A stretch of 64,000 bases of DNA, taken from sequence record PP359570. One strand, 5' to 3'. Numbering within the stretch: position 1 is the stretch's first letter; every line of letters starts with the position of its first letter. The translations under genes were made by a program, and so were the position numbers. The notes beneath the pieces are model-generated. The model made no database searches, had not been told where the DNA came from, and saw only the letters and a program-made list of their open reading frames with translations. This stretch comes from Escherichia phage ALITA. Below, one piece after another: positions 6,471-6,567 of the stretch.

Positions 6471-6567
6471 TTCAAGGAACTCATAGCCGGGTAGATTTAA
6501 AAGAGTATGGTACTCAATATGGCTCCAAACCATAGATCAGGGGGTTCGATTCCTCACCTTGCTGCCA
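6471..6567 (+). pseudogene. tRNA-Trp-like element (anticodon CCA) lacking a complementary 5' acceptor strand
   Basis: Intact anticodon arm TATGG-CTCCAAA-CCATA, T-loop TTCGATT, 3' CCTTGCT-G-CCA; best 5' partner TTCAAGG lies 23 nt too far upstream. Confidence 0.3.

Follow-up and report, generated by a model that had tools for sequence, protein, structure and literature searches.

A tRNA-like element in the tRNA cluster of phage ALITA

The window, that is, the whole stretch of DNA analysed here, comprises 64,000 nucleotides of Escherichia phage ALITA (record PP359570) and matches Escherichia phage phi92 and its relatives (genus Justusliebigvirus, subfamily Stephanstirmvirinae) at 95-99% identity. 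ARAGORN at default settings predicted 15 + strand tRNA genes, all within 3540-6648. Within this cluster a 146-nt gap runs from tRNA-Met (6348-6426) to tRNA-Ile (6573-6648), and the gap holds an element at 6485-6567 (58 nt 3' of tRNA-Met and 5 nt 5' of tRNA-Ile) that encodes its CCA end as its neighbours do. We refer to this element as the odd tRNA-Trp, and its parts are listed below. A promoter scan found no sigma-70-like promoter between 5345 and 7087 of the window, which is consistent with co-transcription with the neighbouring tRNAs and does not prove it.

6427-6484, + strand: spacer after tRNA-Met, outside the gene; alignable among close relatives only; contains TTCAAGG at 6471-6477
6485-6567, + strand: whole candidate gene for a non-canonical tRNA-Trp(CCA), 83 nt with encoded 3' CCA; unit conserved in blastn, 104.2 bits with covariance model R1, called by ARAGORN -mt
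6485-6492, + strand: acceptor 5' strand AGCCGGGU, 8 nt; partner 6556-6563, with a C.U mismatch at the fourth pair in ALITA
6493, + strand: unpaired A ('A9'), invariant in alignments A1, A2 and A4 (all rows)
6494-6496, + strand: 5' strand GAU of the putative helix X, the extra connector bases; pairs with 6536-6538 (3 of 3 pairs covary, 95-100% of cells paired)
6497-6501, + strand: single-stranded connector UUAAA (UUWAA in the family); T12, T13, T14, A16 and A17 invariant in A2; in all members of subfamily 1 of the element
6502-6516, + strand: D hairpin, stem 6503-6507/6511-6515, loop UGG at 6508-6510; all 6 pairs covary
6518-6534, + strand: anticodon arm UAUGG-CUCCAAA-CCAUA, anticodon CCA at 6525-6527; U33 and A37-A38; stem 98.6-100% paired, 3 of 5 pairs covary
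6536-6538, + strand: 3' strand AUC of the putative helix X, within the 6-nt variable region GAUCAG (6535-6540); covariation
6541-6555, + strand: T arm, 4-bp stem GGGG/CCUC, loop UUCGAUU; 100% paired
6556-6563, + strand: acceptor 3' strand ACCUUGCU; covariation
6564-6567, + strand: discriminator G73 and encoded CCA; G73 in 14 of 14 sequences, CCA end in 13 of 14

The spacer 6427-6484 forms a hairpin of its own in a single-sequence fold and has no excess stability overall (z = -0.10). A hairpin at 6438-6477 (+ strand; CCUU..GGUGUAAUG / CAUU.GACAC..AAGG) takes in TTCAAGG and is kept in close relatives only. Several phage records lay a short 'hypothetical protein' over the 6438-6477 region.

Response of tRNA predictors and Rfam models

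Default ARAGORN made no call at this site, and no match to the Rfam tRNA model RF00005 was listed at 6485-6567 even at E-values up to 10, so that the element falls below the thresholds of both standard detectors. The best match within the tRNA clan was tRNA-Sec (RF01852) at 22.4 bits, its gathering score being 47. With the threshold lowered to 95%, ARAGORN reported a tRNA-Trp(cca) at 6490-6567, the acceptor stem of which is poor. That call was dropped, as its acceptor consists mostly of wobbles and mismatches and ignores the covarying strand. In mitochondrial mode (-mt) the same program called 6485-6567, boundaries identical to those of the gene proposed here. A preliminary description of this DNA had suggested running predictors with relaxed settings, and it had named a standard cloverleaf with different boundaries as the finding that would overturn it. 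Calls were indeed obtained in both modes and, taken literally, neither was a standard cloverleaf.

The general hallmarks of a tRNA are present: a 5-bp anticodon arm with a 7-nt loop, U33, a purine at 37, a UUCRANY T loop, the G53-C61 closing pair, GG in the D loop and a 3' N73-CCA. The sequence does not fit a canonical cloverleaf with a 7-bp acceptor, a 2-nt connector, a D stem at 10-13/22-25 and a 5-bp T stem. It does fit the (8/4) class, in which an 8-bp acceptor and a 4-bp T stem make a 12-bp branch, and it carries the Trp identity set G73, C34-C35-A36 and A1-U72. A tRNA-Sec identity was dropped on score (22.4 bits), anticodon (CCA), variable arm (a 6-nt variable region) and branch length (12 bp). 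Rfam 15 holds no family for the odd tRNA-Trp, and a search limited to open-access papers found no description of it, an absence that is not proof.

Structure of the 83-nt gene

Direct reading of the sequence confirmed the landmarks listed by the preliminary description, namely the anticodon arm TATGG-CTCCAAA-CCATA at 6518-6534 with anticodon CCA at 6525-6527, the T loop TTCGATT at 6545-6551 and the 3' strand CCTTGCT-G-CCA at 6557-6567. As it had also stated, there is no pairing between the 3' acceptor strand and the bases about 76 nt upstream. Its conclusion that no matching 5' acceptor strand exists was wrong: the strand AGCCGGGT at 6485-6492 fills this role and defines an 83-nt gene at 6485-6567. 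In ALITA, AGCCGGG(T) at 6485-6492 forms 7 of 8 pairs with (A)CCTTGCT at 6556-6563, with one C.T mismatch, and the single-sequence minimum free energy (MFE) fold already uses 6485-6492 as the acceptor strand. The partner favoured earlier, TTCAAGG (6471-6477), makes only 5 pairs and lies in the non-conserved spacer. When relatives were aligned, as had been advised, it was the AGCCGGG(T) strand and not TTCAAGG that proved to be conserved and covarying. The suggestion of an unusual 5' insert was sound to the extent that extra bases exist. They do not amount to 23 nt after the acceptor; the extra length is 9 nt (A9 + GAU + UUAAA, 6493-6501), placed between the 8-bp acceptor stem and the D hairpin. 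Since three of the insert bases pair with the variable region, the insert appears to be a conserved structural part of the RNA.

The aligned sequences specifically support an 8/4 arrangement over a 7/5 one. The eighth acceptor pair can form in all 14 sequences (UA in 9, AU in 3, CG in 1 and UG in 1), and the fifth T-stem pair of the 7/5 reading (49 with 65) can form in 3 of 14. The 7/5 reading with a large D loop, as drawn by ARAGORN -mt, was dropped on these counts. Seven of the 14 sequences leave the fourth acceptor pair unpaired. In the D hairpin, the sixth pair (6502/6516) is A.A in ALITA and is paired in 9 of 14 relatives, and the GG of the loop is invariant and expected to contact the T loop. 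In the tRNA-Sec model the part to which this hairpin aligns is the 6-bp D arm. One unpaired nucleotide separates the D hairpin from the anticodon stem in the structure tested. The anticodon loop is invariant in subfamily 1, and in one metagenome copy (L130) the encoded CCA end is replaced by CUA.

Conservation and distribution

A blastn search with the whole 146-nt gap returned 62 phage records at 75-100% identity. Among close relatives the entire gap aligned. In distant phages only query positions 56/57-142/146 aligned, corresponding to 6482/6483-6568/6572 of the window, and the conserved unit is therefore taken to be the 83-nt gene at 6485-6567. The distant carriers included Klebsiella phages KP13-26, FKP3 and KP2025, Citrobacter phage Tr1, Hafnia phages SarahDanielle and Zyzzx, and 'Listeria' phage LPML1; in all of these the copies lie unannotated inside tRNA clusters.

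We then used pattern scans of public contigs followed by covariance model R1, built from six copies. These recovered the gene from two viral contigs (L129, 148 kb; L067, 248 kb) and from metagenome contigs, some with diverged copies (L130, L133, L134 and L136) and some with near-identical ones (L131 and L137). Members scored 56-105 bits with R1, those recovered in these scans 65-105 bits, as against at most 43 bits for canonical tRNAs. The range of the 83-nt unit thus takes in Stephanstirmvirinae, some Ounavirinae, the 248-kb viral contig and metagenome contigs, and wherever the sequence context exceeds a short fragment the copies sit in tRNA clusters. A pattern scan with positions 34-35 left free found no other anticodon, UCA and CUA included, on this scaffold. 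One scan of genome contigs showed no cellular copies; its single match (L139, an Acidobacteriaceae MAG) did not fit the R1 model and was rejected. These matches indicate that the odd tRNA-Trp recurs far beyond chance and that purifying selection acts on the 83-nt unit in several phage subfamilies.

Several records bear marks of their own at this locus. Locus tags skip a number at the element in phi92 (FR775895.2; PHI92_t015 to t017) and in the Hafnia phages (SARAHDANIELLE_93 to _95 and ZYZZX_92 to _94), which suggests that an annotation call was once made and later dropped. Four 'Campylobacter phage' records of about 146 kb (MG065639, MG065645, MG065656 and MG065689) contain the phi92-type element plus spacer at 99.3% identity, and 'Listeria phage LPML1' (OK283618) is classified in Ounavirinae with a tRNA cluster resembling that of the Hafnia phages. 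The host labels of all five records look doubtful.

Covariation and the connector-variable helix

The proposed structure, 26 pairs in five helices, was evaluated on a MAFFT alignment of 14 distinct sequences. Paired cells made up 94.0% of the total, and 20 of the 26 pairs had changed on both sides. Shuffled alignments never reached the observed value in 500 trials for four of the five measures, and did so in 2 of 500 for the fifth. Controls in which the 3' partners were slid by 1-3 columns were 40-48% paired. A model-fitted alignment of 13 distinct rows gave 96.3%, and slid controls as a whole stayed at 40-50%. Changes on both sides were found for 7 of the 8 acceptor pairs, and RNAalifold independently predicted the acceptor (8 bp), D (6 bp), anticodon and T (4 bp) stems.

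The remaining helix (helix X), the new feature of this fold, would join the 9-nt connector to the 6-nt variable region. Eight strand combinations were observed for it: GAU/AUC, AGU/ACU, GGU/ACC, GUU/AAC, GCU/AGC, GUC/GAC, GCC/GGC and AUC/GAU. Its nearest-neighbour energy is unfavourable (a cost of 0.5-2.9 kcal/mol), and neither the MFE folds of single sequences nor the consensus from RNAalifold contain it, so that its support is wholly comparative, from covariation.

In a canonical tRNA the D stem closes the D loop, and the acceptor/T and D/anticodon stacks are bridged by nucleotides 8-9 and by the variable loop. Here the longer bridges (9 + 6 nt) would pair with each other, and two three-way junctions would therefore replace the usual four-way junction, with the D and anticodon hairpins branching from a loop closed by helix X.

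A second subfamily of the element

A search with R1, filters off, found a diverged copy (44.5 bits) in a Felixounavirus tRNA cluster, directly 5' of tRNA-Ser. By blastn this version occurs in 236 Ounavirinae records (Felixounavirus, Mooglevirus, Michonne-like phages and Pectobacterium phage Arno18), and none of the 40 examined among the matches listed had it annotated as a tRNA. Sf13, Sf17 and Moogle, which are relatives of Sf14, have a related copy. The Sf17 record states that its tRNAs are tRNAscan-SE predictions, and the element just 5' of tRNA-Ser is unannotated there. Escherichia phage Av-05 (Vequintavirinae) has a related form scoring 56.3 bits.

This second subfamily, the larger of the two, keeps the 8/4 branch, A9, a connector of the UUAAG type, the D hairpin with GG, G73 and CCA. 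In its members (L160 4237-4319, L148 1472-1553 and the 236 Ounavirinae records) the anticodon-stem pair nearest the loop is a conserved C31.A39 mismatch, which would effectively leave a 4-bp stem with a 9-nt loop. Helix X can be drawn as 2 bp only here, and the connector and variable sequences are too nearly invariant for covariation to bear on it.

Other unusual tRNA genes in these phages

A second non-canonical tRNA lies at 3916-3997 of the window (+ strand). ARAGORN misses it, the Rfam tRNA model scores it at 38.6 bits, and its anticodon is UCU (Arg). It has only 4 nt in the place of the D arm and a 20-nt insert 3' of the anticodon arm. A CUC following U8-A9 apparently pairs with a GAG downstream of the anticodon arm, and an invariant UAAUUGGAGUAU follows. 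A Vibrio phage copy has CGC/GCG instead, a single compensatory change seen in a single sequence. The arrangement looks like a permuted core, ordered as D-stem 5' strand, anticodon arm, D-stem 3' strand and GG 'D loop'. The gene was found in 240 phage records at a coverage of at least 80%, from Felixounavirus, Vequintavirinae, the 351-kb phage Turkey5 and a Vibrio phage (anticodon CCU), and is almost never annotated, the exception being a 'tRNA-OTHER' in phage Antha. A strong sigma-70-like promoter (TTGACA-17-TATAGT) stands near it at 3876-3904.

KP13-26 (L156 2208-2306) and contig L067 (4867-4963) each contain an unannotated tRNA-like gene, 97-99 nt long, whose anticodon is UAU (Ile, AUA). These genes have an insert of about 26 nt in the variable region and score 39.2 bits with the Rfam tRNA model, and ARAGORN labels the L067 copy tRNA-Ile(tat); they are possibly a third unusual kind of tRNA among these phages. 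Contig L067 (IMGVR_UViG_3300040801_004532, 248 kb, of jumbo-phage size) also has a tmRNA predicted by ARAGORN at 90-440, with tag ADDYYTEVALAA*, adjoining the tRNA cluster. A canonical-looking CUA tRNA ('Pyl' by ARAGORN) is found in clusters of the Stephanstirmvirinae type, at L156 3757-3831 in KP13-26 and at L129 9301-9375, and is a potential amber suppressor. Finally, a 222-kb metagenome contig (L132, Ga0209300_1000006) has at 4247-4317 a 71-nt gene resembling tRNA-Trp(CCA). It lacks an 8-9 connector: the acceptor is followed at once by a D hairpin of 4 bp whose loop is UGG, the anticodon stem has 7 bp and the variable region 3 nt; this is a different minimal design for the CCA anticodon.

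Tryptophan identity and predicted function

The E. coli Trp identity determinants are G73, C34-C35-A36 and A1-U72 (PMC9976931). In our alignment the discriminator G73 and the anticodon CCA are each present in 14 of 14 sequences and the loop CUCCAAA in 13 of 13 from subfamily 1; A1-U72 occurs in 12 of 14, with G.U in the other two.

The tRNA repertoires of the carriers point the same way. In the whole genome of Klebsiella phage KP13-26, ARAGORN and Rfam found 24 canonical tRNAs, which serve 19 amino acids, and in addition the CUA tRNA. Tryptophan is the sole amino acid that lacks a canonical tRNA, and the odd element sits between tRNA-Met and tRNA-Ile. The one extra Rfam match in this genome is the long tRNA-Ile(UAU)-like gene, not a Trp gene. 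In the 10.6-kb cluster of contig L129 there are 23 tRNAs and only Trp is missing, and the Sf14 study reported 26 tRNAs for 19 amino acids, Trp not being listed. Although circumstantial, this completeness, drawn from one complete genome (KP13-26) and two partial cases, is the strongest argument of its kind for a Trp function. The odd tRNA-Trp may be the sole tryptophan tRNA of about 300 sequenced phage genomes.

We therefore read 6485-6567 as most probably an intact, widespread, unannotated and structurally novel tRNA-Trp gene, and we think it likely that its RNA is charged with Trp and used in translation. It would be a non-canonical elongator tRNA-Trp whose CCA anticodon reads UGG, presumably co-transcribed with the neighbouring tRNA genes and released by host tRNA-processing enzymes. 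Host TrpRS would charge it through G73, C34-C35-A36 and A1-U72, and EF-Tu would deliver it through an acceptor/T branch of the normal 12 bp, built as 8+4 instead of 7+5, for use on the ribosome. In the rebuilt core the 8-9 connector would become A + 3 nt + UUAAA, with the 3 nt pairing to the variable region as helix X, and a separate D hairpin of 5-6 bp would present an NGG loop to the T loop. We infer transcription, processing, charging and use on the ribosome from the sequence, and compatibility with RNase P, TrpRS, EF-Tu and the ribosome is an assumption, because no precedent for the rebuilt core has been characterised by experiment.

Alternative explanations

The transcript might be made and folded as a tRNA-like RNA and yet not be used in decoding, acting instead as a decoy or sponge for a tRNA-targeting nuclease or a modification enzyme of the host, or as a regulator that mimics tRNA-Trp. 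Ribosomal competence is not to be assumed, because the core is so altered that default ARAGORN and the Rfam tRNA model fail on it, and the conserved single-stranded UUAAA together with the invariant A9 is a possible protein-binding site. Countering tRNA-targeting defences is a known role of phage tRNAs (PMC10264068, PMC11464382). Against a non-decoding role stands the selective retention of every feature required for charging and delivery (G73, A1-U72, the CCA anticodon, the CCA end and a branch of exactly 12 bp), and it leaves unexplained why Trp alone has no canonical tRNA in an otherwise complete phage set. We regard it as unlikely.

A special case of the tRNA-Trp reading is that the charged tRNA, with its rebuilt hinge, uses the CCA anticodon to read UGA as well, which would make it a natural counterpart of the Hirsh suppressor or of tRNA-Trp with a 4-bp anticodon stem. 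Changes in the hinge (residues 9-12, 23-26, 44 and 45; A9C, Hirsh G24A, 27:43 unpinning) enable tRNA-Trp(CCA) to read UGA (PMC13092985), and the region rebuilt here is precisely that hinge. In the window, the 71 open reading frames end in TAA (59), TGA (6) or TAG (6). UGA is thus a minority stop (6 of 71), and 2 of the 6 UGA stops have an in-frame TAA 0-2 codons downstream. At 38% G+C, however, scarce UGA is expected anyway, so stop-codon usage does not discriminate for UGA suppression; moreover, UGA stops do occur, and in-frame UGA was not found in conserved genes. Reading of UGA in addition to UGG therefore strikes us as distinctly improbable.

The preliminary description had raised the possibility of a decaying gene. 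Such a gene would be a formerly canonical tRNA-Trp broken by a small insertion and now drifting. The failure of standard predictors to call it and the one acceptor-stem mismatch in the ALITA copy would suit such a pseudogene. This account is refuted by the purifying selection on the 83-nt unit, which is kept at 75-100% identity across phage subfamilies while its flanks are not conserved, and by compensatory changes in all five helices. The 20 double-sided changes among 26 pairs include pairs made by the 'inserted' bases, and the loops are invariant, whereas drift would lose pairing and not restore it. We give it next to no credence.

We find it equally hard to credit a canonical tRNA from which 9 extra nucleotides are excised after transcription in the manner of a mini-intron, for although removal of 6494-6502 would put the D hairpin near its canonical distance from the acceptor stem, we know of no bacterial or phage mechanism that cuts out 9 nt between the acceptor and D stems, the 8/4 arrangement would stay non-canonical after excision, and covariation links three of the extra bases to the variable region, so that they should belong to the folded RNA under selection. 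Introns in bacterial tRNAs are of group I and lie in the anticodon loop (PMC3984707).

Significance

If the odd tRNA-Trp is active in translation, the tRNA core can accommodate a rearrangement that characterised elongator tRNAs do not show; carrier phages of E. coli, Salmonella, Shigella and Klebsiella are easily grown, so this idea is directly testable. The broadest form of the proposal is that a new natural tRNA architecture (8/4, free D hairpin, helix X) works in bacterial translation and is the sole encoded Trp decoder of hundreds of coliphage-type genomes, its fold perhaps selected for UGA read-through or for invisibility to host enzymes; here we see the balance as even. Altered decoding and enzyme evasion are both proposed on the ground that point mutations in the hinge, the very part rebuilt here, allow UGA reading. 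We speculate that the new hinge architecture may change decoding, or may keep the tRNA from being recognised by host enzymes that read the canonical core. The connection with the Hirsh hinge also yields a concrete, testable idea of UGA read-through.

About 300 GenBank phage records lack an annotation of this gene, and some carry spurious 'hypothetical proteins' over it. Studies of tRNA repertoire and codon adaptation that depend on standard predictors would undercount Trp, as in the Sf14 analysis with its 19 amino acids. The scaffold is also a natural tRNA body unlike that of the host and may be of interest to genetic-code engineers.

Comparison with known tRNAs

Many of the (8/4) tRNAs, namely the Ser-type allo-tRNAs, have a long variable arm, whereas the variable region here is 6 nt. 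The closest described class is that of the (8/4) tRNAs of Mukai et al. 2017, which takes in allo-tRNAs and (8/4) tRNA-Ser and tRNA-His of bacteria and phages, with translational activity of allo-tRNAs shown in E. coli (PMC5389517). Common to those tRNAs and the odd tRNA-Trp are the 8-bp acceptor and 4-bp T stem forming a 12-bp branch, the location in phage tRNA clusters, and tRNA-Sec-like features with a long D stem and a very small loop (PMC5389517). The species of that class are Ser, His, Cys or Sec, and the paper has no mention of Trp, the identity proposed here (PMC5389517). The acceptor-D spacing is 9 nt here, three of them pairing as helix X, as against 1-2 nt in the (8/4) tRNAs treated there. 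A connector-variable helix was found described neither in that paper (PMC5389517) nor in a 2020 review of non-canonical tRNAs (PMC7609411).

tRNA-Sec (RF01852) is the only Rfam family that scores at the site, and shares with the odd tRNA-Trp an 8-bp acceptor, a 6-bp D stem, a 3-4-nt loop and G73. The odd tRNA-Trp differs from it in having CCA and not UCA, in lacking a long variable arm, in its 8/4 (12 bp) branch in place of the bacterial 8/5 (13 bp), and in the extra connector and helix X.

With the Hirsh suppressor and the tRNA-Trp(CCA) with a 4-bp anticodon stem, the odd tRNA-Trp has in common that the body is changed in the hinge of D stem, anticodon stem and variable region while the anticodon is intact (PMC13092985). 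The Hirsh-type variants are point changes in a canonical cloverleaf for which UGA reading has been demonstrated (PMC13092985), whereas here the whole hinge is rebuilt.

E. coli trpT and the odd tRNA-Trp have in common the loop CUCCAAA, G73, A1-U72, G2-C71, the A36-A37-A38 context and the usual type of T loop. In contrast, trpT has a 7/5 branch, a 2-nt 8-9 connector, a 4-bp D stem that closes a normal D loop, and one four-way junction.
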